Positions 22,861 through 56,335 are shown, counted from the first letter of the stretch. The stretch: 64,000 nucleotides of DNA from Podospora anserina (GCA_017654855.1 CM030336.1:310001-374000), one strand, 5' to 3'. Notes: generated by a model from the sequence alone, not told the origin. Program-made: numbers and translations.

Positions 22861-24111
22861 TATTGTTCAAAATGAATGGGTCCCTCGTTCCTGATCGTGA
22901 GGACTTGATGAAGGGCTTGTTTTGAGGAGGGCGTGTTGCTGGATTGTGTAGAGTGTTTGGAAAGATGTTTGTTGTGGTGTGAACGTGCGGGGACAGATCT
23001 CAGCTTTATGCATCACTGCATATTATTTGATGAGATGACCCTGTGAGATGTAGTCAGAAACTTGCGGATAGTTCCTCACTTGAAGAAATACACGATGATA
23101 GGCATCCAAGCATGCCACGTTTGGCTCTTCATGACAGTGGCTGCTGCTGCACAGCCATGCTTACCTACCTGCCTCACCGAATTGAGGCAAGCAGCGATCT
23201 TTCCGTGCAGCTTCCTGTTTCCATCCTTCTGCTCTGCTTTCCCCAACTTTCGGAAGGCACACTTTTCTCAACACTTGATCGATTCAAAAGCATTCTGCCT
23301 TCTGTCTTGCAGCCCAACCAGCCCTGTTTTGTCATGCCTCGCTCACAGATACGGAACGCGGTCAGGAGGTCAGTGAGAAAGGCCAAACCGGTACCTTCCG
23401 GTCGTCAAGGGGAGGGTGGTACGCCACCTGAGGAGGATAAGGGCGATGAAAACTACCAGTGTGGGGAGTATTGGTTTTGCGTACGTTTGTTTGTACAGGT
23501 TTTGCTGAGTGTATGCTAAGTTTGACTGGGGGTTTAGCACCGCTGTGGTGAGGGGCCGTATACGTTGTTTGAACGCGATTGTGAGAGCGGGGAGTGTGGG
23601 CATCATGCTCGGTGTTCGAAATGTCACGTTGAGTGGGGGTGTGCGTGAGTGTGGTGGGTGGTGGCTAATATGTGTGCCGTCGAGGTTGAAGAATTATCCC
23701 AAGTCTCAGTTTGCCGAAAACATAACATGTCGATTGAATGCAGGTACCAACTACAACTGGCCAAAGATCATATACTCTTCTCAAGTAAATATCTACCATG
23801 ACGAATGGAAATCGCCCAAGGCAAATACTGAAACTTTGAGATGTGTTCTGCTGTTCTGAGGCAGAATTGGTAAACGGTATCTAGCAGTTTGGGGTGATCA
23901 GCTGATACTGAGCAAGTGGCTGTGGAAGACGCAGCTCTCGTGCCGCCCAACTCACTTCTCTTCCAATGGGAGTGCAAGAGATGCGATAGCAAATGGTGCG
24001 GAGATTCTCTGACCATCTCTTTTCGCGCTCAGGCTCTACTTTTTCATCCACATCACCGACGTCCAAAGTTCAACCTTTTCTCTCATTAGGAAGCCACGAC
24101 AACGACCAGCG

Positions 24112-24474
24112 ATGGCCGAAAGCCGACCTGTCACCCGGGATGAGTTCGAGATCGCGATTATGTGCGCCCTCCCGCTCGAAGCTGAAGCAGTGCTGTACCT
24201 TTTCGACGAGTTTTGGGATCGAGAGGGCGACCCCTACGGAAGATCACAACAAGACTCGAATGAATACAGGACAGGGAGAATTGGCCAAGATGATGTTTTC
24301 CTCGTTATTCTCGCTGGGATGGGCACTATAAACGCTGCCAATGCTGCCCGCGACCTCCTATCCAGCTATGTCAAAATCCGATTATGTCTTGTTGTGGGTA
24401 TTTGCGGAGGTGTGCCATCACCCGAAGTTTCCGGACATGACGACGATATTCGATTGGGCGATGTTGTTATCTGA
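24112..24474 (+). pseudogene. Truncated nucleoside phosphorylase (PNP_UDP/Pfs) domain of the kind found N-terminal in fungal NLR proteins
   Basis: FEIAIMCALPLE, NEYRTGRIG, GMG, CLVVGICGGVP and DIRLGDVVI, followed immediately by TGA. The rest of the domain and any NACHT/NB-ARC region are not detectable downstream. Confidence 0.8.
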
Positions 24475-24978: not shown

Positions 24979-26467
24979 TCAATATTGCCAGTCAGTTCCA
25001 ATCTCCCTCAAGTCCTCTATCAAAGCCGGCGGGTTATCCAGCCCGGCAAAGGTACCTCCAAAATCATGATCTGCCACGCTGTCAACATCTGATCTAGCAT
25101 CAGCAGAACGGTTCCAGACACAAAGACTTACTTCGATACTCGGTAAGATTCCCAACCATTGCAATCACCTCCCGAGGCCAAAAAGCAGTGTTGTACTTGA
25201 AGAAGCTCACAAGAAGCGGCGCATCCGTCCTCGCCCGTCTCGGCACTCTTTCAAAGGCACCCGGATCTTGAGCGTAGATGTATATCGATGATCGAAATGT
25301 CCCCGTGAGGTAGTAGAGTGAAACACAACGCAACAATTCGTTTGTCGTTAATATGGATGGGGCTGTACCGGCTCTTGGGTCCGACCCTGTGAAGAATGTC
25401 AGTGATGTGCCAGCGGCCTGTGTCAGGGCTACCCTACAGTCAATGTACTTGTCGCCTATCCAGGCTAGTTGTCCTACAGGGTTGTCGTGTAGGGCCAAGC
25501 CAACTGTGTTGGGCTGTATGGCAGACGTGAGTTAGTTGTTGTAGAAGTCATCCAATAATGCAAGTTACCTTACTAACCTTGGTTGTCTGCATAACAAAAT
25601 ATCCCATACCATTGACACCCCATTCCACCGACCTTTGCAATTCGAATTGCTCCAGCGGCGAAAGAGAAATATTCCTCGCTGAAATCTCCTCAGGGGTAGT
25701 AGGATGAAAGAACATAAACACAAGATGGGCAGCTCTTGCTGTGGTGTTGAACTCATCGTACAAAGTAAACGAGATAGCCACGCCATGAGCAGTTCCGTGG
25801 ACAGCGTAGGTTTCATAGCCAAGGACCTTCGTCATGAGCGTGTTGTACACACGTGCTGTGTCATCCAGTGTCCAATTTTGTGGCGGGGATGATGAGAATG
25901 CAAACCCGGGCAGTGAAGGGATGATGATGTCAAATGAGACATTTCTGCCGGTGGACGTTCTTGCTTGTTGGGTCAGATCTTTGATGATGGGTAGAAACTC
26001 TAGAAACGAGCCGGGCCAGCCATGGCATAGAAGCAATGGTATTGCGGTTGGGTCTTTGGACTTTTCGTGGATGAAGTGGATTTGGAGACCCTCAATTGTC
26101 ACTGCGTAATGATGGAATCTTAAAAAAAAATAATGTGTCAGTCCATTGGGCTAGCTAGTTCTAGGAGACAGACATACTTGTTGATAGACGCTTGTTCTCG
26201 TTCCCAGTCAAAATCATGAAGCCATTCTTGCTTCAGTGCTTTGAGAGCGTCGAGATCAATCCCGAAGGAAGACCCAATCCCTGGATACTGCGGTTTCGCC
26301 GGAAGCTGTGTTGACCGGATGAGATCCAGCATGTGAGGAACATTCTTCGAAAGGTTTACCCGAAATGGTTTAACCTTGAAGGGAGCCGCAGGTGATGGGA
26401 TCGTCAATGCCGGTGTAACAAGACCAAGCAGCGATGTCGTGAGGGTTACCAGTCTGAGCAGCATCAT
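24979..26467 (-). CDS. Secreted epoxide hydrolase-family alpha/beta hydrolase homologue (EHN domain), catalytic residues substituted; about 5 exons
   Basis: Signal peptide MMLLRLVTLTTSLLGLVTPALT, FDWEREQASIN, IEGLQIHFIH, LLLCHGWPGSFLEF, PSLPGFAFS and ALHDNPVGQLAWIGDKY. The last exon is HDFGGTFAGLDNP. Confidence 0.88.
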
Positions 26468-26646
26468 CTTGACGCTGTGGAACTTGTCTTTGCGCAAGCT
26501 GCATGAGAAAATGTCTTAGCTAAAGCAATGCAGCATTCTAATGTGACCCTTCTACCGTCTATCGCGTCTACCTATATCTCGGTGATTTCCAATTTTGGCC
26601 GTTTCCGCTGGTTGCCTGTGGTGTGTAACCAGCGGCTTATACGTCC

Positions 26647-28891
26647 TTATGCGGAGCCATTCACCTTTGATCGTCCGACCGCGAATTTCTCGCCCAACGT
26701 TACCCATGCGGCCACATAACTCAGAGTACGGAACGCTTTCGGATCAGCATGGTCGCCGAATCCCTTTTGCAGTGCATGCTCAACTGCGGCCCAGTTCACA
26801 AAGCCGAGGCCCTCAACTGCCTGTCTGGTCAGGAGGGTCTCAAACATGCGGTGCAAAGGACCCCCTTTAGGCCATTTGGTTGGTGCCAGGAAAGGGTGTT
26901 TTCTCCGTCGGTAAAGCTCATCAGTAATGAATGGCCTTACCGCCTCACGTAGAATCCATTTTTCAGTAAGACTGTGAAGACCAGAGCCGGCTGTCTTCCA
27001 AAGGGGACCCTGATTTTCTCCTTGCTTTGGCGTGGCTGTTTCGGCGGGATTGTACGATAGCTTAAGGCTGGGAGGAAGTCGGTTCACGTACTCGGCCAAG
27101 TGATGATCCAGGAAAGGGGTACGTGCCTCAACACTGTGTGCCATCTCTGTCCGGTCGCCCAGACACGACAAAAGGACATTGGCAAGACAGCTCTTATTCC
27201 ACATGTACAGGGCAGTGTGCAGTGGGTGCCAGCGCCCTCGCATCTTGGCGCGAACAGAAGCTGGGTGTGATGTAATAAGCGTGGCCCGGCAGTCGAGGTC
27301 TTGGAACTTGGATTGGACCCAGGGTGCAAAGAGGCCCTGGGTGGGATGCCACGCCAGGATACTCTCAGCCATACCCCGGGCGTTCGCGTCGGAAAGCGAG
27401 GGGTGGTCGAGCCGGCCGTCGTACTGGTTAGCACCGATATTGCGCCAGATGGCTCTCATCTCGGCATCCGTGGTCTGTCTCATGGCCTCGCGAAGCTCGT
27501 TGTCAGAGCTGAGTGTCGTATCTGGCAGCGCGAGGTCTGGCTCGCAGAGAAACTCGGCAGGGAAGTAGGGATATCCAGCAAAATGCTCGTCGGCTCCTTC
27601 ACCCGTGAGAACGACCTTGACACCATGATCTCGAGGTAGCGTAGACAAAGCAAACTTGGCCACAGTGTTGAGGTCGAAGTGGTGATGCTCGCAATGCCAC
27701 ACGGTGTCGGAAAAGTCGCTTGCCAGACGTGCCTCGTTGACATCGACTTTGATGGTTTCAACCCCAAGCCATTTTGCTGTTCTTTCTGCGATACTGGACT
27801 CGTCATAACCGGATTCTTCTGGGAATCGAACACTGAAGCAGGTGACTGGAGTGGTTGGTTCACGGTCTCCAATTTTTACATGCTCCGTCTTTGCCAGGTG
27901 GGTAACGATACCAGCGACAGCTGACGAGTCGATGCCACCAGACAGGTAAATGCCAACTGGGACATCAGCGCGCAGCCTAAGACGAATCGAATCGACCAGC
28001 CTTTCACGAACACCTTCGACCATCTCTTCAAGCGGCCTTGTCTCAACTTTGGTCTACCATGTGTTAGCACTATTCCCGCAAGAATGGCCAAGCGGCGATA
28101 TCCTTGTTACTGACCTTATCTTCATACTCAGCGTCCCAGTATACTTGATCTTCGATCCCCTTCTCCTCTGTCACCTGAAGCCAATGCCCAGGAAGGACCT
28201 TGTGGACTCCCTTGAAGAGGGTCCTGTCGTCAAGCATCCACCCACCGCTGACGATAGCATCAACGTCCCACTCGGCCTTCCATCCCAGAGGCAAAAAAGC
28301 CTTGGCCTCTGAGGCGATCAAGAGTCGATCGTTCGACACAGTCCACACCAACGGCTTGATACCGAACCGATCGCGAGCAGCGATCACTCTTCTTTTCCCC
28401 TCACGACGATCATACAAGACGAATGCAAATTCTCCCCGCAAGTACTTGAAGAAATGAGGAGCGCCGTGGATCTTGTACAAGGCTACCACGAGTTCACTGT
28501 CGCTTTCTCCTCGAAATTGGTAGCCATGCTGCTCGCGACACTCCTCCCACAGTCTATCTTGGTCGTAGATCTCCCCGTTTACGACAGCATGGATGCTTCC
28601 ATCATCACTGACAAGGGGTTGGGAGCCGCTGGGAGAAAGGTCGTTGATGGATAAGCGGCAGTGACCAAGGGCAATGCTGCTGTCTTGGCTGATCCAGACT
28701 CCGGCTTCATCTGGGCCACGATGATTCAGGATATCGATGGAGGACCGAAGTTGCTTTTCAATGGGACCAGCCGAGAACGTTGAGCCATTTGTCTGAGCTG
28801 AATTGTTTGCTGGAGGAGTTTGTTTGGCGACGGCAGGCTCTGAATCAAGCCTGCCTCGCGGGAGGGCAATGCTGGCTGTGATGCCGCACAT
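26647..28891 (-). CDS. Asparagine synthetase-like glutamine-dependent amidotransferase (cluster-type)
   Basis: N-terminal MCGI (Ntn Cys), HRGPD, NGEIY, ARDRFGIKPL, PP-loop LSGGIDSS, TGEGADE and EARTPFLD. Intron 28054-28114 joins the two ORFs in frame. Confidence 0.93.
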
Positions 28892-29351
28892 CTTCAGACA
28901 AGGATGGTGGAAATCGTCAGGTATGATACCCTAGTTGGCTTTCGTGATGTATCAGTGTTTATGCTTTGTCGAAGTGTTGACTTTGGACAGCGAGAATGGC
29001 TTCTACAGCACCAGTGCATCAATCTAATCTGACCCAAAGATAACCTGGGCCTCTATTGATAACTTACATGGCTGTCGACTTACTAGTCGATGGTTAGTTT
29101 CCAGGTTCCTCATTTTAACTATCTCCGAATCAGTCAAGTTCGGCCCGGTGCCGTTTTTGGCCATGTAGCTGCTTCGCCCGCCGTTTTGATTCGCCACCAC
29201 GTCAGTTTCACTACATCTGCCGCTGATCAACGGTAGACTGCATGCAGAAGAACTGTTTCACTCGACATCACCTTAGCAAAGTGACGATCACTAATTCTCT
29301 CTGCATCGCGAAAACACCACCACGATAGAGGCTACCGCCAAAGCTCCAGTC

Positions 29352-31092: not shown

Positions 31093-31762
31093 TGAGGGTT
31101 TTATTTTTCTATCTTTCGAAGGGGCGTGTTTGCTTTCGTTGACTTCATGTTCATACTTGGTTTCTTTGTAATCATTGACATATTCGTCACACGAAGAGGG
31201 GCAGCCGCTACACTTGGGAAATATCATAGGTTAGCGAAGGCGTCAGAAAATGGAAGCTATTGTTTTTGAGTTCAAACAAATTATCTTGGAGATTTGCGTG
31301 TTGCTCTTCTCACCCACCAGCTCACCATTGTCCTTGGCACTGACCCCTGAGCTAGTTGAGGGGTTTGTTTACTTTCCCCCCTATCCACACCGACCCCTGA
31401 ATGACTGCCCCACTTTTCCTCACACTCTTTTTCCTTGCCGGCGACGGCCGAATTCATCGGAATGTGGTGTGAAACTTTGGATCTGCTCGGGGAAGTGACA
31501 AATACAGATTCGGACCTTCGTTTCTTGTCCGCTTTTGGCACGCTCCGAGTGTGCAGGTGTTGCAATGCTGTGCGACAACCCAGCGTGGCTCAGAGCGACA
31601 TCGCCGTACCTGTCAATAACCGCCTCAAGCAGTCCATTGCCCCGTGGATTCAGACCGCAAATGCCGTTGATACCTATGTAGTAAGCAAGCATATCATTTC
31701 CCTATTCTACCCTTCCAAGCCTAGGCGCTGCACAGCATATCGTCGATCCCCGCATTGCCAAC

Positions 31763-32453
31763 ATGGCACAAATCACCAGCGCACACCTCCAGACGCACAA
31801 CACAGCCAAAGACCTCTGGGTGGCAGTTCATGGATACGGCAAGTCAAAATATCTCTTCTTTTTTCACCCTTACCTACCTACGGCTAACAAGAAGTGCAGT
31901 CTACGACCTGACCTCATTCGCAGCCGACCACCCTGGCGGCATTGACGTCCTTCTCGAATGCGCCGGCACTGACGCAAGCGAGCCGTACGACTACGCTGGG
32001 CATGGTGATGATGCGACAACGACGATGCAAAAGTTTAGGGTTGGGGAGCTCGCTGGGTATCGCCATGCCAAGAGCAAGACGAACACGGGTGGGGGGAGGC
32101 CTGTTGCAGAGTCTGCTGGTGGTAAGGGGTCGTCGTCGTGGATTGTGAAGGCCGCATCGGTGCTCAATTCCAGGATGATTTTGTCCTGTCTGATCGGTGG
32201 TGCTGCGTTGCTTGGGTTGAAATTACTTCAGCGAGCGCCTGTTGAAGGGGTGGATGGGCGATCGTTCAGTGGGGTGGAACCAGTGTATTCGTTCTTGGGG
32301 GGGTTGCTTGTCGCGACGGTGGTCTGTCTTGTTGGTGCTGGGTATGTCTACAATGAGTTTAATCGGACGCTGAAGCCGGAGAAGGAGGTGTTCGATTATC
32401 CAGCGCTCATTCCAAGGAGAAGAGACAAAAAGCTTGAAACATTGAGCACTTAG
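31763..32453 (+). CDS. Cytochrome b5 heme-binding protein with two C-terminal hydrophobic segments
   Basis: HNTAKDLWVAVHGY|VYDLT..ADHPGG..AGTDAS..YAGH, with both heme His ligands present. The reading requires GC-AG intron 31839-31899. Confidence 0.9.
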
Positions 32454-32916: not shown

Positions 32917-33422
32917 ATGTCCCACCTTCCGTGTTTTTGCTACAAAGGATTTGGCGAAGAGAAGCGCCAGGAGCTTTGGTACAGCCAGGCTGTGCGTATC
33001 GGAGACAAAATTGAGTGCTCTGGTCAAGGTACGATTGCTCAGATCTGGTCTACCCTCTTCACCAACTAATCAGCGACAAAACAGGCGGCTGGAACCCCGA
33101 AACAAGCGAAGTCCACAAAAGCTTGTCCGACGAGTTCGACCAGGCGTTCAAGAATGTCGATCTAGCCCTTCGCACCGCTGGCGGAAAAGGGTGGTGTCAG
33201 GTGTACAAAATCCGTGTGTATCTTACCATCATTGACGACGAAGCGGTTGAGGCGTTGGTTCGCAACTTGAGGACGTGGATGCCGGATCATCAGCCTATTA
33301 TGACGGCGATTGGGGTGAATAAGTTGGGCTTGGAAGGGATGAGGATCGAGGTGGAGGCTGTTGCTCATGATCCCGAGGGGGCTGCGAAGCATGCTGCGGA
33401 GGAGGCAGCTGGTTCGCATTAG
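32917..33422 (+). CDS. Rid (YjgF/YER057c/UK114) family protein
   Basis: WYSQAVRIGDKIECSGQG|GW, QAFKNVDLAL and MRIEVEAVA. One intron at about 33029-33084. Confidence 0.9.
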
Positions 33423-33896
33423 GAAAGGGACACGCAGGATGTGCCATCGATAGCATCAATTTACCTTGCATTGCATGTGGTATGTTGGTTGGTTTAGTCA
33501 TAGCAGTGATCTCGGGCGGTGAGATTTTGGACCGAGATTTATTCCAATCAGGCGAATGGGGAGAAAGCCGTGGGACATGCGAGATCTCATCTTCCCGACG
33601 TCTTTGTGATCCATACGACGAGGGACGTCCCGTTAAGATTTTGCACAGCCACCTTGGGGTTCCCCCTTTTAGGCAAGTTTCATGTGCTTGGCCGACGCTT
33701 CACGGCTTGGACACTCCACCATGTGTACCAGTTGGTCATAGGTAGCATCAACAAAATAGATGGTTCCAAATTTGTCAGCCCATGATAATGCCATCTTTGA
33801 CATCTCCCATTTAATAAGCCGCCCCGATCTCCCTTGTTTCACAATTAACTTACTCAACCATCCACCTTCGACGCACCAACACCAAAATTCGGCGTC

Positions 33897-35051
33897 ATGA
33901 CCAACCCGTCAGCAGCACCAGTTTCAACCAAGTTCCTAAACGTCCTTGTCATCGGCGCAAATGGCTACCTTGGAACTGCCATTTGCAGCGCCTTTCTACG
34001 AACCAACGCTCCACCAACCTCCTTTCGAGTCCACGGCCTCATCCGCCGCGAATCAGCCGCCCACCAACTGGCAATGAACGAAGTCATCCCCATCATTGGC
34101 TCTCTCTCCGAACCCGACATGGTCCGCACGGCTGTCTTGTCCCACAGCCCTGTCTGGGACATAATCGTCACCTGCACCGAACCCTCCAGAGCCACCGAAG
34201 CAGCCCACTGGTCTGACCTCTTGGCGTTTATCCAGGACTTGGCCTCGGAGTCCGCCTCCCACGGGGTTCGCCCCTTCGTCCTCTGGTCGTCCGGCTGTAA
34301 AGACTACGGCACGACAGGATTACACGGTGAAAAGAGCCTCACGCCGCATTCGGAGGACTCACCGCTTCAGTCTCACCCCATCATCCGCGGCCGGATGGAC
34401 GCCGCGTTGCGCGTTCTTGAGGTGGCCGGTGCCGAAGGATCCGACTTTACGGCTGCCGTGGTGAGGGCTACACCTGTCTTTGGATACAGCGGGAGCTACT
34501 ACGGCGCTGCGTTCGATTATGCCGCGGCATTTGCTGGTGTCTTCGGGAAAGATGATATCAGGAGTCGAACCCTGGACTTCACGTCAGATGAGGGGACGAT
34601 CATGCATGGAGTTCACGTTGATGACTGCGGTGAAGGGTACGTGGCCCTGGCGACGGCGGCTCTACCGGACGATGATCGTAGACGGAGAATCGCTGGCAAA
34701 GTCTTCAACATTTCTGGGAGGAGATATGAGACATTGCGCGAAGTAGGCGTCGCCTTAGCGCAGGAGTATGGATTCGGACACGGAGCGAGGTTCGGTCTAG
34801 CTCAAGACGAGCTGCCAGAAGCGGTTTCTGGGCATAATTGTGGACTCGTCTTTGGATGGAGCCAATGGGTGAGCAGTGAAAGGATTCGGAACCTGACCCA
34901 TTGGTGTGACAAACGGTCGCTCTTCTCAGAGAATATCGGTGTCTATAGGCTGGCCTATGAAGCTGCTATTGAGGCTGGATTGGATGACGTGGAAAAAGTG
35001 AGAAGACGAATGGCTGGGAACTGGGGGGATGATCACAAGGCTGCGGAGTAG
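33897..35051 (+). CDS. Atypical/extended SDR, NAD(P)-dependent epimerase/dehydratase-like oxidoreductase
   Basis: Rossmann motif VLVIGANGYLG, WSSGCKDYG, VVRATPVFG, VHVDDCGEGY and VFNIS. Intronless 384 aa ORF. Confidence 0.85.
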   Translation: MTNPSAAPVSTKFLNVLVIGANGYLGTAICSAFLRTNAPPTSFRVHGLIRRESAAHQLAMNEVIPIIGSLSEPDMVRTAVLSHSPVWDIIVTCTEPSRATEAAHWSDLLAFIQDLASESASHGVRPFVLWSSGCKDYGTTGLHGEKSLTPHSEDSPLQSHPIIRGRMDAALRVLEVAGAEGSDFTAAVVRATPVFGYSGSYYGAAFDYAAAFAGVFGKDDIRSRTLDFTSDEGTIMHGVHVDDCGEGYVALATAALPDDDRRRRIAGKVFNISGRRYETLREVGVALAQEYGFGHGARFGLAQDELPEAVSGHNCGLVFGWSQWVSSERIRNLTHWCDKRSLFSENIGVYRLAYEAAIEAGLDDVEKVRRRMAGNWGDDHKAAE

Positions 35052-35514
35052 ACCCTTGATCGTCAGACTGCATGTACACAGAGGCTTGACCTTTCATAGC
35101 TGGGTAGCCAGTCAGAGTGTATCGCTGAAATCTGTATTCAGTGCCGGGAACGGACGTACGCCGCTGCTGTACAAACCGCTGACTTTCGGCGGTATTATGG
35201 ATCCAGGAATCTGGCACAGCTCAACCCGAAACAGACTATGCCATATCATAGTGAAGTTGCGAATAGCCTCGTGGTCGTGTGGCCGCTTGTGATGGTTGTG
35301 ATGGGTTATCTGTGAGCCCAGAGACCGGGTGCTGCAGCATATCCGTATGGATAACCCAGTAAAATCCACATGCTCCGACTTAGAACAACCTTTGTGTGTT
35401 TTGGTTGTTCGAGGTCAACATATGCATCATGACTCTCTGACCGTGCCATATGCCTCCTTCAAAGAATGTAAGCCTCAAACTAGCGGTGACAAAGCTTCCG
35501 GGCGGTGTGCCATA

Positions 35515-35560
35515 ACGTGTATGATAAGCGAGCGCCGCAGATAAGCGAGCGCCGCACTTT
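35515..35560 (+). repeat. Left terminal inverted repeat of the DNA transposon
   Basis: acgtgtatgataagcgagcgccgcagataagcgagcgccgcacttt, containing the internal direct repeat GATAAGCGAGCGCCGCA twice. Confidence 0.95.
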
Positions 35561-36237
35561 TCGACGCGACTTAACCCTCCACCTTTAACATTCCATTTCT
35601 GAACCAAAAACCATGTCTTCTACCTCTAACGAAGCTAGAGTAATTCTGGCCGCTAAAGCTATAAAAAACAATAAAAACCTAAGTAAACGAACCGCAACGA
35701 AGATCTATAAAGTAAACGATAAAACTATTCGTTGTCGATTTACCGGTATACTTATACGATATAATACTTTAATTAATTCGCGTAAATTTATAGATCTAAA
35801 AGAAAAAATAATTATTTAATATATAATTAAATTATCTATATATATATTTTATTCCCGGCTTTCGTATATAAAAAATATAATTAATCGATTATTATATAAA
35901 TATAACACGCCTTCTATTAACGTACGATAGGTTTATAACTTTATTAAACGTTAGTTAGAACTTCGGACACGTTTTACGCGTAAATATAATTATTAAAAGG
36001 TTAAATATAAGGATTTAAAAGTTATTAGTAAGTAATTTATTTTTATATAAAATATTAAAATTAAATATAGTATTATAAATAATAATATTTATAATTTTAA
36101 TAAAATTAAATCTATAATAAATATTATTATTATTATTATAATTATTATAATTTTTAATAACCGTAATAAAATTAAATAAGTTTAATTTAATAATCGTAAA
36201 TAAATTATAATTATTTAAAGTATAAATATTTTAAATT

Positions 36238-36870
36238 TGTTAATGTGTGGGTACTACTAAGTGCCCTACTTACTGCCTTACAGATTGATATTACAGTGGG
36301 CAGTACTGCTATAAGCAGTAATGGAACTTCCCGGCTTGGATCCCTTTAGAATGTTCTTTACAAGGGACCCTTGAAGGCTTACAGGGCTACTGTGGCCTAA
36401 GGCTTAGTCAACAGGATACTGGAACCTTCTAAAGTGGCTACAGGCTTACGTAGTAAGTCGCTACAATGGCATGATTTACAGGGCACCTCTGCTGCCGAAG
36501 GTTCTATGGATTTCCGTGAGTCTACACTAGACCCACCTAAGCCCACCAAATACCCCAAAGTGGTATAGGGGCTTCCAGGGCCTACAGGACCCACAGTAGG
36601 CTTACGAAGGCCTATATATAGACCTCTCCTCTCTCCTGTAGAATAGTTTTCTTTCTTTCCTTAAGGGTAAAAGCTTAAGGCTAAGGCCAAAGGCCAAGGC
36701 CAAGGGTAATAAAGGTAATTCTTATTCCTTATACCTTACTGTATTATAGTGCTTTACTTTCCTTCGGCACTGCCGTCGTATCCTCCAGCTTCCGCTTGCG
36801 TACTGCTGTATTTTACAGTAACCCTGTATAGGTTCTATATTATAGGCCTATCAGGGCTTACTAGCTAATA
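36238..36870 (+). repeat. 5' LTR of the copia element (633 bp)
   Basis: TGTTAA...CTAATA with the terminal CA mutated to TA; direct repeat of 42066-42698. Confidence 0.95.
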
Positions 36871-36939
36871 GGTTATGAGCCCGGGCAACTACCTAGCCCG
36901 GAATCTAGCTTACTTGTGCGCTTCCAGTCGACGTACCTA

Positions 36940-37232
36940 CAGCACTGTACTATAGGCTGTACGGCTTCTTACTAAGAAGCCTTTTCCAGTGGAATTAGCG
37001 CTGTACTATAGGCTTTACTACTGCTGTGATTATAACTCTGGCCAATACTTTTAGGCCAATTTACAGCACTGTACTATAGGCTGTATAGCTTCTTACTAAG
37101 AAGCTTCTTTAGTGGAATTAGTGCTGTACTATAGACTTTCTACTGTTGTGACTATAACCTTAGGCCAATACCTTTAGGCTAATCGTCGACTTATAGCACT
37201 GTACTACAGGCTGTACGGCTTCCGAGAAGCCT
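36940..37232 (+). repeat. ~123 bp tandem repeat (about 2.3 copies) in the retrotransposon 5' leader
   Basis: A unit beginning acagcactgtactataggctgtacggcttc recurs at about 36940, 37063 and 37192. Confidence 0.8.
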
Positions 37233-39026
37233 ACTTATTAACCTATACGGTTATTTTTACTAAGTCCTCGCCTTTACTATGGCTAACTAGCCTATGGATT
37301 AAGACTAGTTAGGTGTTATAGAGGCTACTAGCCCTATGGTACAGGCCTTATAGGCCCGTATCGACACCATTGAGGATAGGCTTCGGCAGGTTATATTATT
37401 GCTTGAAGCTTAGGCTATTAAATAGCTAGTAGCTGTACCGGCTACCTACATTACCGAGCCTCCCGTGGCTCTAGCTGCTTTAGTACCTTTAGTACTTATT
37501 ACAGAGCCTTTTATAGCGACCTTTAGCACACTTATTACAAAAGAGCTCGCTAAATAGTCTTTAAACCTCGCTAAATAACAGCGCTTTTCAGGACCCGATA
37601 ACTACTAATAGTGGTACTAAGCTATTTCTATATAATTTAGGGCCTTTAGAATACTTAAATTTCTAGAAAATCCTAATTCGGTAAACGCCCGGCTTTCCGA
37701 CCTACAGAAGGCAGCCCTGCTATTGACCCTCAGAAATACACTAAAGGAAGGCCCGTTATCCACTATAGCCTTCGAAACCGACTCCGTTGTGGCCTATAAG
37801 CGCCTTCGCTTACAGTACGCTCCGGCGCAGCTTACCCTCCGAGACGAGCTATATAAGGCCTACCACTACTTGCAGTTCGATAGGTTTATACCTATCGTGG
37901 ATTTTAACGCCTAATTTAATACTTACGTAAGTAGGCTCGGGGCTTTAGGCGTTAAAATAGCCTAAATCGATTAACTAAACCACTATTTTAACGTACTGGA
38001 AAACTATTTTCCATAGTGGGCCGAGCGCTGTAAAGGCCTACTTCGGTAGGAGTAATGGCTCTACTATATAGAAGGCAAGCCTACTAGGCTAAGCCTTTTA
38101 TATTTCTAGGAAAACCTTTTAGCCGAAACCCGTAATTCGGTTACTTTCACTGCTTACTAATTATAGGCCCTACAGGCTACCTATAAGCCTGTTAGTAGCG
38201 AAAAGAAGCCTAACTTTTAGGCTTCTTAAGCTTACCGGTCCTTACTAAATAAGGACCAAAAGCCCTATAAAAAATAGGGCAATAAGCAGTGGAAGAAAGG
38301 CTTGAAAAAGGACGACCGCTGTAACGACCGCTATAACGGCCGCAAAGACGGCCGTAAGGATAGTCGTAAAGACGACCGTAAGGACTAAAAGGACCTACCC
38401 GCTACCGAGGCCTTTACTATAGGCTACGACCTTAACTCAGGCACTGTATTTGGAAGTAATATAACTGAGGAATATAGCGACCTAGGGCCTGATCCTCCCG
38501 AAGAACTGGCTAAATTTAGCTACTTAACCGCTATACTACGTACTTAGTGGCTCTTCGATATAGGCTCTATAGTGCATATCTATAATAATAAAGCTTTATT
38601 TACTAACCTACAGTTCTCTTTTTCCCTAGGCTATATTGATATAGGCGGTGGCCCAGTTAAGCTATAAGGTAAAGGCACTATAGAAGTTGAATTTTTTAGT
38701 GGTTTTGAGGGTAAAAAAGCGGTATATACTACTATAGCCTTTAAGGAAACCTTTTATATTCCAGACTTTCTACTAAATATAGTTAGTAGTTACAGGCTCT
38801 ACGCCTCCGGTGGGACCCTTCTTAAGGACCGCCTATATTCGGCTTCCAGGAAGCTACTGGCCCTCCTTAACTTTAAGAAAAATGGGTTCTTTTTTACTAC
38901 TAAAACCACGGTTCCAGCTAAAATAGAGCATTTAACGCTATAAGTATACGGCTCTATTTGGTGCTACAGCACTGAAGATAGCGATTTAGACCCTAAATTA
39001 ACTACTATTACGCTTGAATTTCTAGC

Positions 39027-39125
39027 TATTATAGCGCTTACTATAGCGCTTACTACAGTGCTTACTATAGCGCTTACTACAGTGCTTACCACAGCGCCTA
39101 TTACAGCGCCTATTACAGCGCCTAA
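39027..39125 (+). repeat. 12 bp tandem minisatellite inside copia pol, between protease and integrase
   Basis: (tactatagcgct/tactacagtgct/attacagcgcct)n, about 8 degenerate copies. Confidence 0.75.
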
Positions 39126-42698: not shown

Positions 42699-42992
42699 AA
42701 ATTAAATTATTTTATTATTTATTATTTTAATTAAATAATATTATTTTATTAATTAATATTAAAAATATATTTTTTTAGCTATTTAACGTATTATAATAAT
42801 TAATAATAATTAAATTATTAATAAAAAATATATAAATTAAATTTAATACTTTAATTTTTATATAGTATTTCGTACGAAAAATAAATATTAATTATTAATT
42901 TTTAACGGCTACGAGAGCTATTACTCCGAAGAATTCGAAACTTATTATTAGAAATATAATATTATTATATTATATATATTTCCGTACTTCTC

Positions 42993-47553: not shown

Positions 47554-48448
47554 CTAAAGATTCCAGTGCGCAAAACGATCGCTCATCCCAATAGCCCAGT
47601 CCAAAGCCCTGATCACCTCCTTCACCTCGCTCGGCTTCTGTGGTGGCTGGTGGCCACCGCTGTGCACCATCTTCTTCGCCAACTTGGGCTCACAAACAGC
47701 ATACGCCACGTCCGACATGGCCCTCATGAAGCTGTAGTCCTTTTTTCCCGCGACATGAACAGTCGGGATCCAGATCTTCTGCTTGACGAACGAAGGGTGC
47801 ATAATCCTTGGCGCTAATGACGGATCACCCCCGGCCTCATAGATGCTAAGGTCAATATCCGGCAAGAGGGCATTGTTTTTTCTGGCCTCTCCCACAGTGC
47901 GATCGAGAAGCTCGACAAAGACACGCTGCTCCTGATCGACTGCTGAAGGATCCGTTTGATCGCAGAGACTTTGGATAACCTCCTCACAGACACCGACATC
48001 GGCGGAGCAGGGGATGACAGACGACATGATCAAGGCGAACTTGAAAGGGCGGAGTTCATTCTGCGTTTGCTTTCTGTGGAGGTAGGAGAGGGCGAGGGCA
48101 CCGCCTTGGCTGAAGCCGAGGATGCCATCAAAGGGACCGAGGTCGTCAATTGTCCTGTCGAGGTGCTCATGGGCTTCGATCATTTGTTCTGGTGAGTAGC
48201 CAGCCGTGTGGGAGAAGAAGGGACCATCGAAGGCGGCCATGCCTGTTGATTGCAATGTTAGTTTTCCGCTACTAAACTCAAGTACTTGTGGTTGATCTGA
48301 AGCACTTACCAGGACCTTGCTCGCAAGGGAAAGGCCCATCCACAAAGACAAAGTCAAAGCTTGGATCGACTGCCTTGAGAAATGGCCGGAGCTGGGCCTC
48401 CAACATCTTCCCCGAGCTGCCTACTCCGTGGAGACACAACACACGCAT
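47554..48448 (-). CDS. FSH1/LovG-type serine hydrolase (putative polyketide-releasing esterase)
   Basis: MRVLCLHGVGSS, GPFDGILGFSQGG, IPTVHVAGKKD and HSGGHQPP give an intact Ser-Asp-His triad. Intron 48243-48309; divergent from the PKS. Confidence 0.92.
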
Positions 48449-48919
48449 GGTAAAGGTTGGTAAGAATGATACACCAAGGAAATGCAACAAACCGTTCAAG
48501 TTGAACGTTGGAAAGTAAACAACAGAGACTGAAAAGAAATATGAACAGGGCTGACTGAATGGGGAACATGCATACAGATAGCCCGTCGAAGAATGCTCGC
48601 TTGAGGGCTCTGCGTACCTGCTGCCCATTACCCCATTTGGCCCTCTCCGTCACACAGCCACACGGACTTAATGTCGGACAGCCAAGCCTCACTCGCGATA
48701 ACACTGCATCAACTCGGTCCGTAACACTTACAGACGGATGGACTGACGATCACTTTTCACACAGAGTCGCACAGTACTGTCTGGATATGCCTTCGTGATG
48801 GGAGCAAGACTTTACAAAACGACTTCATTGTCTCCCCATGGTCCGTCTTGAATGACCAGGATCCTACAGAGTTAGAGCAGGTATCAGAAGACAAACAGAA
48901 AAAGCTTCAGCCCGCAGCA

Positions 48920-51900
48920 ATGGATAACAGTCAGCAAGAGCCCATCGCCATCATCGGCGCTGCATGCCGTCTCGCTGGAGAGGTCTCGTCCTTGGGGACC
49001 CTGTGGGACATGATCAGCAACCGCAAGACTGGTCATGGCAAGATACCTGCTGAGAGGTGGAATGCTGATGTCTGGCACCATCCTGACCCAGACAGGAAAG
49101 GAGGTGTAAGTTAATCCCTGAAGAAAAGTACGTTGGCGGTACGTGTTGACTGACTTGGTAACCAGATTGCCGTCAAACATGGGTACTTTCTCAAGCAAGA
49201 CGTAGCCCACTTTGATGCGCCCTTCTTTTCTACCACTGCCAAAGAAGCGGCAGCAATGGACCCCATGAAGAGACTGCTTCTTGAAGTCAGCTATGAGAGC
49301 ATCGAGAATGGTGAGTTTCCTTTGTGCCAAGGGGCCAACATGATGCTGACATCTACCCGCAGCTGGAATACCAGTGGAGAACCTCATGAACTCACGGACA
49401 GGCTGTTATGTGGGTTGCATGACAAACGACTACGAGATGCTCTCACTCCACGACATACATGACATTGGTCACAATGCTGCGTCAGCAACGAGCGAGGCTA
49501 TGACAGCCAATCGTGTATCGTGGTTCTTTGGGCTCAAAGGGCCTAGCCTTACCCTGGACACCGCTTGCTCGTCCAGTCTGTACGCGCTGCACCTCGCATG
49601 CCAGTCGCTGAGGACGAAGGAGACAGATTCGGTACGTTGAATCTCTGTCCAACTTCAGTCCCTCACCGTGGTATGATGTTCTGACCTTGCTGATAGGCAC
49701 TTGTTGCTGGGGTAAACCTTCTCCTTGTCCCCAACACCATGCATCAGCTCTCAGCGATGCACATGCTCAGCCCTGAAGGGATCTCACACACTTTCGATGA
49801 CCGAGCGAACGGTTATGGTCGTGGCGAGGGTATTGGCTCCCTCATCGTCAAGCGCCTCTCTGACGCTATTCGAGACGGTGACACCATCCGGGCTGTCATC
49901 CGCGGTACTGGTGCGAACGCCGACGGCAAGACACCAAGTATCACACAACCGAGCTCGGTCGCTCAAGCTGACTTGATCAGAGACACTTACGCTGCGGCCG
50001 GTCTCCCTCTCACAGACACCCAGTACTTTGAGTGCCACGGCACAGGCACACCAGTTGGCGACCCGATAGAGCTTGAAGCCTTAGCCACAACATTCGGCGT
50101 GGCTCGGAAGGAGGCTGGCCTTGGCCCTCTCTACATTGGTAGCATCAAGCCCAGCGTGGGCCACACCGAAGGCTGCTCTGGTCTGGCAGGCGTCTTCAAG
50201 GCTATTGCTTGCCTGGAAAATGGCATGCTCGTTCCGACATATGGCGTTGAGACCATCAACCCCAAGTTGAAACTCAAAGAGTGGAATTTGGCGTTGCCAC
50301 AGGAGACAGCACAGTGGCCTACCCCTGGGCAACGCCGGATCAGCGTGAATTCGTTCGGATTTGGCGGCGCCAATGCCCACGCCATTCTTGATGACGCTCA
50401 CCACTATCTTGCCGAGCGTGGGTTGGCAGGAAACCACAACACCATCGTCTGGGAACGTGATGGTGCTTATGCTAATGGACATCACCCAGTAGCCGACACG
50501 CCGCGGCTGTTCCTGCTTAGCTCCAAGGACCAGGCTGGCATCCCTCGCCTGGCTGATGTTTACGCAAAGGCACTTGACGCCGCTCATTCTGCCAAAGAGG
50601 ATTCCCACTATCTCAGCAACCTGTCGTACACTTTGGCTTCCCGAAGATCTCACCTCGACTTCAGGAGCTTTGCCGTTGCTTCAACTTTATCGGAGCTGAC
50701 AGAGAAGCTTTCTAAAGGGCTTCCAAAGATTAAGCGCTCAGCCCGACAGGACAACAACCTGGTCTGGGTGTTCACAGGACAAGGAGCCCAATGGTCAGCC
50801 ATGGGACGGGAACTCCTCGGCAACCCAGTCTTTGACAAGAGTGTCCAAGCCTCACAAGTCTATCTGGCCAATCTCGGCTGCGCCTGGGATGCGGTCGAGG
50901 AGCTCACCAAGACAGCTGGTTCCAAGATGCAGTTATCTGAGTACAGCCAGACGCTCTGTACTGTCCTCCAGGTCGCCCTCGTCGATTTGCTTCGGTCTTG
51001 GGGGATCAAGCCTCGGGCCACAGTCGGACATTCGAGTGGTGAAATCGGTGCTGCCTACGCCGCGGGTTACATCAACCGCGCTGATGCCGTCAAAATTGCC
51101 TACATCAGGGGTCTCAGCTCTGCAACGGTTACCAGACAAGGAGCAATGTTAGCCGCTGGCCTTTCCCGTGAAGAAGCTAACGAATATTTGACAAAGGTCC
51201 CAGCACAGTCTGCGGTCATTGCTTGCATCAACAGCCCGTCCAGTGTTACTCTGTCGGGTGATCTTAATGCCATCCATACCCTTGAGAAGCTGATTTCGGC
51301 TGATGGCAAATTTGCGCGGACACTGAAAGTGAAGACGGCATACCATTCGCCTCACATGCGCGCCGTTGCTCAAGGCTATCTCGAGCGTATTGGCCACATT
51401 GATACCACTGCCGAAGGGGCTAACGCCAACAAGACAGTCATGTACTCCTCGCTGACTGGAAAGATCGTTTCACCAAAAGAGCTCAGTGCTCAATACTGGG
51501 TTGCCAACTTGACCTCCCCTGTCGAGTTCTCGGCAGCGTTATCAGCCCTTCTCGCCCACACTGTGGCATCCACCACTGGCCGTGGAAGACCAGTCCCCGT
51601 TCGCTGGGGCGGCATCCTCGAGATCGGCCCTCACTCCGCACTGCAGGGGCCTATCGGTCAGATCATGGCAGCGAGCAACTCGGAAGCCATCAAAGAGACA
51701 CCCTACATGTCACTGCTCCTCCGTGGCAAAGACGCAAGAGAAACATCACTCTCTGCTGCTGCTCAGCTCTGGGCTCTCGGCCACACGGTTGAGCTCTCTG
51801 CAATGGTCGACTCCTTCGACCTTCCCGACACAAAACTCCAGCACAAAGCCTTGACTGACCTGCCCGCCTACCCTTGGAACCACTCCCGCCGCTTCTGGCA

Positions 51901-54900
51901 CGAGGCCTACATCACGAAGTCCAACCGCTCCCCCAAATTCCCCAGAACTGACTTTCTGGGCGTCCCGGTTGACATGCAAAACAGCATGGAGCCCAAATGG
52001 CGCAATCACCTCCGTATCACGGAGAACCCCTGGATAGAAGACCACAAGATCACCGGAACAGTCCTCTACCCCGGCGCAGGGATGCTTGTCATGGCGTTGG
52101 AAGGTGCCCTCCAAGTCTCCGACCCAACAAAAAATGTCCACGGCTTCCGCTACAGCAACATCCGCTTTGAGCGGGGCCTCGTCGTCACAGCAGCAGATGA
52201 ACCCGCAGTCGAAACATCTCTCAGCCTTCATCCTGACGCTAACATCCCCGGCAAGTTCGGCTTCACAATCTACTCCACCACCGGGGACTCTTGGACTTGT
52301 CACTGCCATGGTACAATCTCCCTCGAGTACGACGCCAACGGCTCAAGCGAGGTAGAAGACGCAGGTACGGCTGTTGACCCCTGGACCCTGTACACGGCCA
52401 GATACAAGCAGCTCTTCTCCGACTCTGGCGCCGAAGAAATCGACGTTGACGAGTTCTACGACCAGCTCGAGACAATCGGCATGGAATACGGGCCCCTATT
52501 CCGCAACGTCACTTCGCTGTTTGCAGTCCCAGCCCAACACGCCGCCCACGGCGAGGTCATCATCCCAGACACTGCCTCCGTCATGCCCATGAGCTTTGAG
52601 TACCCCCACGTCATGCACCCCGCGACAATGGACGCAATCTTCCATTTGTTGCTGGCAGGCTTCAACGACGGCCGTCCCATTGACGAGGCTGCAGTGCCGT
52701 ACAGCATAGACGACATGTTCGTTGCCAGCGAGCAACCCCACGGCGCCGGGTCAAAGTTCCTAGGGTACGGCCAGCTGACAAGAAAGAGCGGAGGTGGCCG
52801 CGAACTGGTGGGGGATCTGGTGATTTCGGACGAGAGGTGGTCTGGGCCAAAGATGGTCATCAACGGATTTGCTCTTCGCCAGGTCACATCTGCTGATGAT
52901 GCTGGAATTTCCGGCTCCCAGGAGGACACTTTGAAGAAAAAGTGCGCTCGTGTCACTTGGAGTCAGGATACCGACTTCATCAAGACAAGCGAACAGCTTG
53001 TGGGTGTGTCGACTGATGCGTCGTTACTAGCTCAGCTGTCTGCTTGGTTTGATCTCTTGCAGCGCAAGAAGGCTATTGGGGAGGTCTTGGTTGTTGCGAG
53101 GGGACAATGTCCCGGCACCTCGGAGATTGTGGGCGATGTGTGGCGTCGTGTCCGCAGCCGTGAGGGCTTCCAGAGTGTCAAAGCTGTGTCAACCTCTGCC
53201 TTTGGTGTGGAACAACTCCGTGCATTAGTTCCGAATGCTGAGCCTGTCGATCTGTGGGACATCTCTGGCGACGCCGAACCGCCCGCGTCAAGCAAAGGTT
53301 ACGACTTGGTCTTGGTGATTGGAACCGACAGCTACCCCGACTTCTCCACCGAGCTGCAGAAGCTGGCTCTCCTTCCGCAATCTCATATCGTTCTCATTGG
53401 CGAGAAAAATGTTGAGGCCTTTAGCTTAGAGGGGCACCAGTCGTCTCTCCACCTCCAAGGGAATGGCGATGCAGCGGTGGTGTTTGCATTTGCTGCTGAA
53501 GAAGCCACAGTTCCGCTGGAAGTCTGTCTTCTTCTTCCATCTCCCACTTCCAAGCAAACTTCAGCGTTGGCCTCCAATCTCACAACAGTGCTCTCTGCTA
53601 GTGGCATCAACGACATCAACACCATCACCTTGTCTGACCTCAGCACCCTCGACCTCACCAGCAAACACGTTATCTCCCTACTCGAGTCCGATAAACCCTT
53701 CATCTACTCATGGAACGAAAACGAGTTCACAAGCTTCAAGTCACTCATCTCCTCCGTGGACCATCTGTTCTGGCTGACCCATGGCGGTGTCCTACAATCA
53801 TGGGCAGGAGGCGTAGAGTTCGCCGCAGCTCAAGGCTTGCTTCGTGTCTTGCGCAATGAGTATACCCTCGCATCCTTGCCCCATCTCGATCTCTCCATTG
53901 GCTTTGACAGCACGACGCTCTCGAGTGCCGAGCTTATCGCCTTCGTGTGGCGGGCTTCACTTTTGGAGGGGGCCGAGATGGAATATGCCGAGTTCGAAGG
54001 CAAAGTTCACATCCCTCGTGCTGTGGCCGATGTCGGATTTGACGGGGATTTGCAGCTTGCTGATGGGACAAAGCAGCCTATCCTTGGACCTCTCAAGGGC
54101 GGTAAGCCGCTGAAGCCGATTGTCGTAGGGGCTGAGAAGAAGATTGTCTGGGTTGAGGACGAGGAGGCATCACTACCGCTTGGTATGACTGAGGTGGAGG
54201 TACAAGTCGAGTTCGTTGGGCTGAGCAGTGGCAACACCTTCTCGCTGACTGGCACTGTTGACGATGACTCCATTACTGTACTCGATAGGTGCGTGGATGC
54301 AGTTGGTGTGGTATCTCGTCTCGGAGGCGGAGTAAACTCGCTCGTTGTTGGCCAGCGTGTTGCTGTCTTGAAGGGACATGGGTGCAAAACTCACGTTCGT
54401 CAGGATGTCAGTTTGGTGGCCCCCGTTCCGGATAGCATTCCTTCAGAGAAGACCGCGGCATTGCCAAGCGCATTCATTACTGCTTTGTATGCCTTGTCTC
54501 ATGTCGCAAGATTGGACAAAGGTCAGACGGTGCTCATCCACTCTGCTGCCAGCGCTCCAGGACAAGCAGCCATTCAGATTGCTCAATACCTTGGAGCTGT
54601 CGTCTTTGCTTTGGTCAGCTCCAAAGGGGAGAAAGCCATCCTTGTGGAACAGCACGGCTTACCTGTGACGCGCATATTTGATGCTGGGTTGCTAAACTTT
54701 ATTCCCGCTATTGGCAACGAGACAGGGGGTCGTGGTGTCGATGTTGTGCTCGCGAACGAGGCAGATGCTGCTGTTTCGGCATCCCTGGCCACGCTTGGTG
54801 ATTTTGGGGTCTTAATCGATCTCAGAAGCAGCGAGTCTACCGGCAGCATCAGCCCTCCATCCGGCAAGAAGAATGTATCCATCGTTCGTGTCATCATGGA

Positions 54901-56335
54901 CAGCGTGGCTCAGGCAAAGCCTCACATCATCAAGAGCCTGTTCCAACAAACCTTTGACATCCTCTCAACCAACACCATCAGGCCCATCACACCTACCACC
55001 GTCTTCTCCGCCAGCGATGCTTCTCAAGCACTGCAAACCGCCACAACACAAGCTCACGGGAAAGTTGTACTATCCCTCCAAGGGAGCCCCTCAGTCCTCA
55101 TCCCTCCCGCCCCAGCCCCTGAACTCCAATTCGACCCCTCCGCAACCTACATCATCGCCGGCGGTCTCGGAGCTTTAGGTCTCAACATCGCCGACACGAT
55201 GATTGCGCAAGGAGCCAAGCACCTCATCTTCCTCTCCCGCTCGGGCGGTACGAAGAACCAATCCGACCTTGCCCGCCTCCGTTCCCACGGCATCACAGCC
55301 GAGGCCTTCCCTTGCGACGTCACCAACTCCACCTCTGTCTCCAAGGTCTTCTCCCACCTCCGAAGCGCCAAGCACAAAATCGCTGGTGTGATCCAATGCG
55401 CCATGGTTCTGGAAGATGGCATCTTCGATAACATGACCCATACCAAGTGGTCCCGCGCATTTGCTCCCAAGTCGGCCGGCTCCCGGAACCTCCTTGCTCA
55501 ACTCTGGCCAGATGAGCAGCCCTTCTTTATCTTGCTGTCGTCAATTACTGGTGTGATAGGCAACACCGCCCAAGCAAACTACGCCTCAGGCAACACGTTC
55601 GAGGATGCCCTAGCCCTCTGGGCTCGAACCCACCTTCGGATTGCCGCGACAAGTATTGACGTCGGGTTGGTAGCTGACTCCTCTCACTTCACCGAGGCAG
55701 GTGAATTCGGTGATTTGGAAGGCTACCTTCACCGCTACCAACACGGCTGGAACGGACTCCAGACCACACTCGACGAACTCCGCGTCGTGCTCAAGTCCAT
55801 CATGAGAGGGAGCACCGCCGACGGTGGCAACATCCCCGCACAGCTCGTCCTCGGACTAGGTGACTCCCTCATCCGGGATGAGAACGGTACTGGCTTCGCA
55901 AAAGACAAGAAGTTTGAGCTGCGGGTCGTGAAGTTGGACAAGAGCGGGGGTCAAGCAGGGGGGAAGACGGAGAAGATCGGGGAGGTGTTGAGTCGAGCGT
56001 CTAGTGTCAGTGAGGCGGCTGCTGCGGTGGAGGAGTACATCAAGTTGCAGATTGCTGTTGCGATTGGGGTTGAGGTGGGCGAGGTTGATGCGCAGAAGCC
56101 CTTGCCGGAATTTGGAGGTACGTGCCCCACGTCGACGTGTGAAATGTTTAATCGGGATACTGACATGGGCACAGTGGACTCGCTCAAAGCGGTTGAGATC
56201 AGGAACTTGTGTTTGAGGGAGATGCAGAGTGATATTTCTGTGTTTGAGTTGTTGAGTTCGACGCCCGTGGCCGAGCTTGCAGTCAAGATTGTGACGAAGA
56301 GTGGGCTGGTCAAGTTGGATGCTGAGGCTGTCTGA
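48920..56335 (+). CDS. Iterative reducing type I polyketide synthase, KS-AT-DH-(degenerate cMT)-(ER, probably inactive)-KR-ACP
   Basis: [54 protein letters not shown]-like [27 protein letters not shown] and ACP GVDSL after splicing 56118-56174. Three introns lie in the 5' region (49.1-49.7 kb). Confidence 0.96.

Follow-up and report, generated by a model that had tools for sequence, protein, structure and literature searches.

An epoxide-hydrolase homolog of Podospora anserina, and a fungal clade around it, with replaced catalytic residues

A 64,000-nucleotide stretch of the Podospora anserina genome (GCA_017654855.1 CM030336.1:310001-374000; hereafter the window, in which all positions are counted from the first letter) carries, inside a biosynthetic gene cluster, a gene for a homolog of the epoxide hydrolases in which the nucleophile Asp and the catalytic His of that family are both replaced. 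Epoxide hydrolases of the alpha/beta-hydrolase fold are the textbook case of covalent Asp-His catalysis. The window protein belongs to a clade of fungal homologs that, as judged from their sequences, has given up the covalent hydrolytic machinery throughout and has kept those parts of the pocket that hold the ligand, namely the HGWP motif and both lid tyrosines. The overall best explanation for this combination appears to be a role in the non-covalent opening or isomerization of an epoxide, to which we assign a probability of about 0.4.

Catalytic and pocket residues of the window protein

The gene lies on the minus strand at 24979..26467, as delimited by a splice model, its translation, Pfam searches of the exons and collinearity with 120 homologs. 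It runs from an ATG at 26467 to a TGA at 24981-24979 through five exons (26467-26178, 26118-25578, 25513-25438, 25386-25132, and 25070-24979, the last including the stop codon) and encodes a product of 417 aa; its four introns, of 59, 64, 51, and 61 nt, are all of the GT..AG type. The intact spliced reading frame claimed by the original prediction for this stretch is thus borne out, and translation confirmed the positions given there for the two altered motifs, HGTAHG and GGTFA. The product combines the EHN and alpha/beta-hydrolase domains of the microsomal-type epoxide hydrolases (Pfam EHN, E = 8e-08 in exon 1 and 1.4e-15 in exon 2; Abhydrolase_1, E = 2.6e-12), and its top database matches, like those of the adjoining amidotransferase and cytochrome P450, are Podospora proteins at 99% identity. 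The third intron (25387-25437, 51 nt) is in frame and free of stops, and the 99% identical protein P0001 of Podospora bellae-mahoneyi is modeled in the database, at 434 aa, with this intron translated; the resulting 17-residue insert is probably an annotation error, as it is absent from the other 119 relatives. The models of four further members of the clade (P0002, P0003, P0038, and P0017) begin at an internal Met46 and so are missing the leader.

The two replacements were located by alignment to proteins of the PDB and by column counts over the relatives, which were taken as the 120 best database matches to exon 2 and aligned with the window protein in MAFFT (121 rows in all). The nucleophile elbow reads HGTAHG (25782..25799, minus strand), with Ala207 (GCT, 25790-25788) in place of the nucleophile Asp and His208 in place of the usual Trp. 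In HMMER alignments "vhGTAHG" falls on "vqGGDLG" of 5f4z and on "aqGGDIG"/"iqGGDIG" of 6ix2/6ix4/8xiz and 1qo7, and Ala207 is aligned with the elbow Asp of 5f4z, 6ix2/6ix4/8xiz, and 1qo7/3g02. The C-terminal motif GGTFA (25045..25059, minus strand) contains Thr394 (ACC, 25053-25051), which is placed on the His of GGHFA in 1qo7, 3g02, 8xiz, 6ix2, and 6ix4. It follows from these alignments to solved epoxide hydrolases that the nucleophile Asp and the catalytic His have really been replaced. The loss of both residues and the retention of HGWP had been predicted, and the columns of the 121-sequence alignment agree with the solved structures on both points; in the alignment with the Aspergillus niger epoxide hydrolase the nucleophile and His columns fall at the two predicted motifs. 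Two details of the prediction require adjustment. The elbow it gave for the family, GxDWG, reads GTDWG in the nearest relatives and does not hold as GxDWG in general, and the multi-base codon change it proposed for each residue stands for the His, as ACC is two bases from CAC, but fails for the Asp, as GCT is one base from GAT.

Across the 121 rows the nucleophile column holds D in 107, S in 8, A in 3, and P, Y, and a gap in one each, and the His column holds H in 99, a gap in 8, N in 5, F in 4, T in 3, and A and R in one each. Both residues are kept in 96 of the 120 relatives, referred to below as canonical. The Asp is missing, as Ser or Ala, in ten relatives, referred to as variants; all nine of these that are readable at the His column are also without the His, having Asn, Thr, or Phe there, and the tenth (P0004) has a gap. 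For the window protein, with Ala and Thr at these columns, the hydrolysis of epoxides to vicinal diols by the covalent route, via an alkyl-enzyme intermediate, is predicted from the sequence to be impossible.

The ligand-holding residues show a different pattern of conservation. The HGWP oxyanion-hole motif (H129-P132; 26013..26024, minus strand) is intact in the window protein and present in 121 of 121 aligned proteins. The first lid tyrosine, Tyr270 (25599..25601, minus strand), falls on the Tyr that stands at chain position 249 in 1qo7 and is Tyr in all ten variants and in 94 of the 96 canonical proteins; the second, Tyr340 (25274..25276, minus strand), aligns with chain position 312 of 1qo7 and is Tyr in all ten variants and 92 canonical proteins, the remaining four having gaps. 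Three positions past Tyr340, column counts identify a clade-specific acidic residue, Asp343 (25265..25267, minus strand): position 343 is D in eight variants, E in one, and N in one, as against N in 91, D in one, and a gap in four of the canonical proteins. At the position of the charge-relay acid of the A. niger enzyme, an Asp at chain position 346 of 1qo7, the window protein has Asn368 (25190..25192, minus strand) and hence neither Asp nor Glu. The whole subfamily is atypical in this respect, canonical relatives included, since these keep the nucleophile Asp and the catalytic His yet carry Asn at the charge-relay position in 91 of 96 cases (D in four, a gap in one); among the variants the position is N in five, M in two, S in two, and V in one. 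We take the relevant A. niger residues to be those numbered 192, 251, 314, 348, and 374, which fit the chain positions of 1qo7 if an offset of two is assumed, and the counterparts of Tyr270, Tyr340, and Asn368 would presumably be Tyr251, Tyr314, and Asp348.

The variant clade, its constraint, and its fold

The ten variants come from Sordariales, Colletotrichum, Clonostachys, Beauveria, Monosporascus, and one lichen fungus, and can be grouped by motif. The pair seen in the window protein, GTAHG and GGTFA, recurs in P0001 and in P0002 of Triangularia setosa. GTSHG with GGNF[AP] is found in P0003 (Cladorrhinum), P0038 (Podospora fimiseda), P0005 (Colletotrichum karsti), and P0074 (Clonostachys solani), and the same elbow occurs in P0004 (Colletotrichum spaethianum), the C-terminus of which is unaligned. 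GTSNG with GGFFA is found in P0007 (Monosporascus), P0015 (Beauveria thailandica), and P0017 (the lichen fungus Pyrenodesmia). The Ser- and Asn-bearing relatives suggest that the residues changed along stepwise paths. The window protein is 56-87% identical to other members of the clade and 57-65% identical to five canonical relatives.

In the remaining 14 of the 120 relatives the Asp or the His is missing singly; for eight of them the His column is a gap, apparently from truncation of the gene model. Outside the clade, single departures include Tyr and Pro at the nucleophile column in Trichoderma harzianum P0120 and Roridomyces P0108, respectively, and N, A, R, or F in place of His in P0025, P0067, P0085, and P0116; some of these sporadic departures may be gene-model errors at the last exon.

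A tree was built from 55 rows comprising the window protein, nine variants, and the first 45 canonical matches of at least 395 aa; it omits the near-duplicate P0001 and the other 65 matches. A branch supported at 99 by the Shimodaira-Hasegawa-like approximate likelihood-ratio test (SH-aLRT) has all ten variant rows to one side. When the elbow, His, and position-343 columns were removed and a site-mixture model was used, nine of the ten still formed a clade with a support of 99, and the long-branched P0074 from Clonostachys solani was placed outside it on an unsupported branch; an approximately unbiased (AU) test did not reject the grouping of all ten (p = 0.34). One ancient loss is therefore the simplest reading, given the nine-member clade at 99 and the AU result, though a separate second loss may have taken place in Clonostachys. 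Terminal branches of the variants measure 0.09-0.63 against a median of 0.21 over all rows, an ordinary range that indicates no decay-like acceleration.

As a gauge of constraint on the protein, 71 positions were taken at which the 96 canonical proteins are conserved to at least 95%. In the window protein 66 of these are unchanged, the departures being D207A, P233F, N343D, Y351P, and H394T; other clade members retain from 58 of 63 up to 68 of 71, and a canonical protein differs at 1.1 positions on average and at no more than 7. Within the clade all three triad columns vary (S/A at 207, N/T/F at 394, and N/M/S/V at 368), HGWP, Tyr270, and Tyr340 are invariant, and position 343 is Asp or Glu in nine of ten. 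The comparisons thus lend good support to repurposing rather than decay, the interpretation already put forward in the original prediction: the double loss is common to a clade that spans several orders, its branches are normal, 66 of the 71 conserved positions are kept, and the cluster around the gene is conserved. Had orthologs in sister clusters kept D and H, the prediction would have been in difficulty; they are without D and H, which favors it.

The fold was modeled with AlphaFold2 on the ortholog P0002 (87% identical; its gene model is without the first 45 residues) from an alignment of 85 sequences. The model has a mean predicted local distance difference test (pLDDT) score of 96.6 and a predicted template-modeling (pTM) score of 0.94, and its best Foldseek matches, 6ix4, 5f4z, and 1qo7, are all epoxide hydrolases (query-normalized template-modeling [TM] scores of 0.83-0.87). 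The modeled fold is compatible with that of the epoxide hydrolases, so that the fold as predicted is kept. A Kyte-Doolittle scan places a candidate signal peptide or signal anchor at the N-terminus, with hydrophobic residues 1-22 followed by small residues (26402..26467, minus strand), and of 77 full-length relatives 60 have a hydrophobic N-terminal 12-mer. Conserved N-x-S/T sequons occur at three positions, in 80 of 121, 88 of 119, and 86 of 120 aligned proteins. Together the hydrophobic leader and the sequons make a secretory-pathway location plausible, and the signal peptide read as intact in the original prediction is to be taken as a candidate; a signal anchor of the kind we take to be present in mammalian microsomal epoxide hydrolase is the alternative for the N-terminal segment.

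Cluster neighborhood and possible role

Immediately upstream of the homolog, on the same strand, is a gene for an asparagine-synthase-type glutamine amidotransferase (26647..28930, minus strand; Pfam GATase_7 and Asn_synthase, with homologs including "amidase chyE"), the stop codon of which lies 179 nt from the ATG of the homolog (gap 26468-26646). A fungal terminator and promoter would have very little room in this gap, and read-through or tightly coupled transcription is possible. Divergent from the amidotransferase gene is a cytochrome P450 gene (29536..31092, plus strand; Pfam), followed by one for a cytochrome b5-like protein (31725..32453, plus strand; Pfam Cyt-b5). A homolog of this P450 in Beauveria asiatica (P0334) is annotated as a 660-aa cytochrome b5-P450 fusion, which fits joint action of b5 and P450. 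Two further open reading frames (ORFs) of uncertain cluster membership, recognized by Pfam, encode a RidA/YjgF-like (Ribonuc_L-PSP) protein (33015..33422, plus strand) and a protein of the NAD-dependent epimerase/dehydratase (SDR) family (33849..35051, plus strand). They stand between the b5 gene and an AT-rich block marked by repeat-induced point mutation (RIP), and they may be extra tailoring genes absent from the published five-gene soa cluster discussed below. On the far side of the block are a candidate polyketide-releasing serine hydrolase of the FSH1 family (47554..48649, minus strand; Pfam on two ORFs) and a polyketide synthase of the highly reducing type (HR-PKS; 48725..56335, plus strand) with KS, AT, DH, ER, and KR domains according to Pfam. 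Housekeeping genes occupy both flanks of the cluster region.

The RIP-marked block, recognized from composition indices, covers 9 kb at about 35200-44200 and has a GC content of 0.40; its TpA/ApT and (CpA+TpG)/(ApC+GpT) ratios are 1.73 and 0.63, against 0.51-0.59 and 1.28-1.33 elsewhere, and no ORF of at least 130 aa was found in it. Of the two halves into which it splits the cluster, one holds the amidotransferase and P450 and the other the PKS and hydrolase; the homolog gene lies outside the block, in a stretch with normal RIP indices. Just downstream of the homolog gene, a 153-aa ORF (24013-24474, plus strand) matches the start of PNP_UDP_1 (E = 3.1e-08, profile positions 1-93 of 233) and may represent a fragment or the opening exon of a longer gene; Pfam matched nothing else in 22-24.9 kb.

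In many fungi, homologs of the amidotransferase and the P450 stand next to each other by locus tag. Of the ten database variants, six (P0001, P0003, P0038, P0005, P0004, and P0015) are found on a contig or in a locus-tag series together with a homolog of one or both. The linkage is by locus tag in Podospora (QC761_502130 / 502150, with the amidotransferase QC764_502140 in P. pseudoanserina), C. karsti (_00900 / _00906), and B. thailandica (_007643 / _007653), and by a shared contig in Cladorrhinum (252919 bases), P. fimiseda (12490 bases), and C. spaethianum (981547 bases). For the other four variants only congeners or nothing appeared among the listed amidotransferase and P450 homologs. In a comparison by eye, no canonical relative was seen to share a contig with a listed amidotransferase or P450 homolog.

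The closest published parallel to this gene set is the soa cluster of Myrothecium sp. FJNU6, as described in the available text of the report on it. There the HR-PKS SoaA and the hydrolase SoaB make sorbic acid, which the amidotransferase SoaC converts to sorbamide, and the P450 and cytochrome b5 yielded nothing new when expressed in Aspergillus nidulans without further partners, so that the reconstitution ended at sorbic acid and sorbamide (PMC13284220); the sequences are deposited as GenBank PX619210 (PMC13284220). As far as that text goes, the two clusters share a core of HR-PKS, releasing hydrolase, asparagine-synthase-type amidotransferase, P450, and b5, a likeness of gene set. Homologs of the amidotransferase (62% identity) and P450 (67% identity) of the window also occur on one contig in Paramyrothecium.

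Set in such a pathway, a non-covalent role for the triad-less protein could be pictured as follows. The PKS and hydrolase would make a short unsaturated acid, which the amidotransferase would turn into a primary amide; the P450/b5 pair would oxidize the amide, probably to an epoxide, and the triad-less protein may hold this epoxide with its tyrosine pair and open or rearrange it without forming a covalent enzyme intermediate. The tyrosines would serve as acid catalysts, with Asp343 as a general base that activates either water or a nucleophilic group in the substrate, and the resulting activity would be that of a cyclase or an isomerase, both proposed in the original prediction, or of a one-step hydrolase. 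A bolder version, which we hold tentatively and think unlikely as a whole, is that the clade represents a new mechanistic class within the epoxide-hydrolase fold, in which the tyrosine pair and a relocated carboxylate, Asp343, act on a P450-made epoxide of a short polyketide amide, maybe outside the cytosol, supply the missing step for the seemingly silent P450/b5 pairs of soa-type clusters, and give rise to an amide metabolite, heterocyclic or rearranged, that has yet to be described.

Several considerations weigh against an epoxide-opening role. The members of the clade are known from sequence alone, and an epoxide as the P450 product is assumed only from the fold of the triad-less protein. 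The high pLDDT of the model stems from an alignment of mostly canonical proteins and says nothing about function, and Asp343, a candidate pocket residue, lies just past the helix that bears Tyr340 in the P0002 model. A secreted or lumenal protein would be kept apart from the PKS, the amidotransferase, and the catalytic domain of the P450, all of them cytosolic, and so would need an exported substrate. In most species that have the amidotransferase-P450 pair, no variant appears among the 120 listed matches, so that the protein would be an accessory of a subset of these clusters and not a core step. The available text of the soa report, finally, contains no mention of an epoxide hydrolase (0 occurrences; PMC13284220).

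The pattern of losses can also be read as that of a non-catalytic binder, the pocket of which would hold a reactive product or intermediate, making the protein a sequestering or self-protection factor, a secretory-pathway carrier, or a helper that directs the P450/b5 pair. There is precedent in receptors of the alpha/beta-hydrolase fold such as GID1, which have lost the catalytic His and bind a ligand. All three triad positions vary in the clade, as expected if chemistry is dispensable there, and the kept lid tyrosines and HGWP, the candidate signal peptide with the conserved sequons, and the silence of the soa P450 and b5 on their own in the available account (PMC13284220) fit this reading as well. 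Against it, the acidic residue gained at position 343 in nine of ten variants is more easily read as new chemistry, stoichiometric binding is costly for a secreted metabolite, and there is no evidence that the product is toxic to its producer; we regard binding without catalysis as possible, though unlikely.

The other accounts fare worse. We give a small chance to a serine-type hydrolase or acyltransferase, in which the change from Asp to Ser would have brought chemistry on an ester or amide via a G-x-S-x-G elbow (GTSHG): eight of 11 variant sequences (the ten from the database plus the window protein) have Ser at the nucleophile position, in the context GTSHG in five and GTSNG in three, but the window protein, P0001, and P0002 have Ala, and the catalytic His is absent from all ten of the 11 that are readable there (P0004 has a gap), where it is replaced by the unrelated residues N, T, and F. 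Nor is there an alternative His conserved specifically in the clade, His204 being common to 52 of the 96 canonical proteins, and an elbow Ser is paired with a catalytic His neither in the window protein (Ala207, Thr394) nor in its Ser-bearing relatives, which have no His at the catalytic column. A decaying relic, an inactivated epoxide hydrolase heading for loss and retained by its linkage to the cluster, would explain why both key catalytic residues are gone and why the Ser of relatives has changed further to Ala in this lineage. The chance we allow it is slimmer still, since the frame is open with four canonical introns, the family-conserved positions are largely kept (66 of 71), the altered state is maintained at ordinary branch lengths across several orders, identity to other clade members (56-87%) compares well with that to the five canonical relatives (57-65%), and the gene lies outside the nearby RIP-mutated block, with RIP indices of its own that are normal. 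Next to no chance is left for a conventional epoxide hydrolase with its catalytic residues elsewhere in the sequence; the canonical relatives also have Asn at the charge-relay position, so that the subfamily is not fully textbook, but alignment to five solved structures pins down the elbow and His columns, D and H stand at exactly these columns in 96 of 120 relatives, and no other conserved Asp/His pair is peculiar to the clade.

In a widespread, newly described type of fungal cluster built on an HR-PKS, an amidotransferase, a P450, and a b5, tailoring genes stand unexplained, and the protein is a concrete candidate for them. More generally, a conserved and cluster-linked clade that has dropped all three triad positions, with the epoxide-holding residues kept, is a natural experiment in the re-use of a fold.

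Comparison with known systems

The literature searched held nothing relevant on triad-less or atypical epoxide hydrolases in fungal clusters, a result that holds for that collection only, and no papers on the Podospora locus tags Pa_5_2120 to Pa_5_2160 were found in it. Another epoxy polyketide primary amide from an HR-PKS pathway is reportedly made by the cerulenin (cer) cluster of Sarocladium, said to have been described by Shang et al. in Angew. Chem. in 2025. The idea that the cluster of the window produces cerulenin was dropped, as no resistance gene resembling a fatty acid synthase (FAS) was present among the window ORFs scanned and the nearest published match is soa.

The nearest relatives in the tree are canonical members of a fungal EHN subfamily of about 415 aa (e.g., P0006, P0019, and P0036, with GTDWG ... 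GGHF[PA]), which have the same leader, sequons, and length as the window protein and, in five members compared, 57-65% identity over the whole length. Unlike the window protein, this subfamily keeps the Asp and the His (96 of 120 relatives), and, judging by database source names, none of its members has been characterized. The epoxide hydrolases of A. niger (1qo7, 3g02) and Aspergillus usamii (AuEH2; 6ix2, 6ix4, 8xiz) share with the window protein the EHN domain, the alpha/beta-hydrolase core, the lid, HGWP, and both lid tyrosines, at about 32% identity and with query-normalized TM scores of 0.83-0.85 for the ortholog model. Unlike these enzymes, the window protein has no nucleophile Asp and no catalytic His, carries Asn at the charge-relay position, possesses a hydrophobic leader and conserved sequons, and is encoded inside a biosynthetic cluster.

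A functional precedent may be sought outside the fold. The "epoxide hydrolases" of polyether pathways and AurD of the aurovertin pathway have a different fold (NTF2/limonene-epoxide-hydrolase-like) and no sequence relation to the proteins considered here. In the available text of a review they are described as epoxide-opening cyclases of polyketide pathways (PMC4979870). The likeness to the role proposed for the triad-less clade would be a functional analogy only, but the principle, so far as that text describes it, is alike: an epoxide made by a partner oxygenase would be opened regioselectively without a covalent intermediate.

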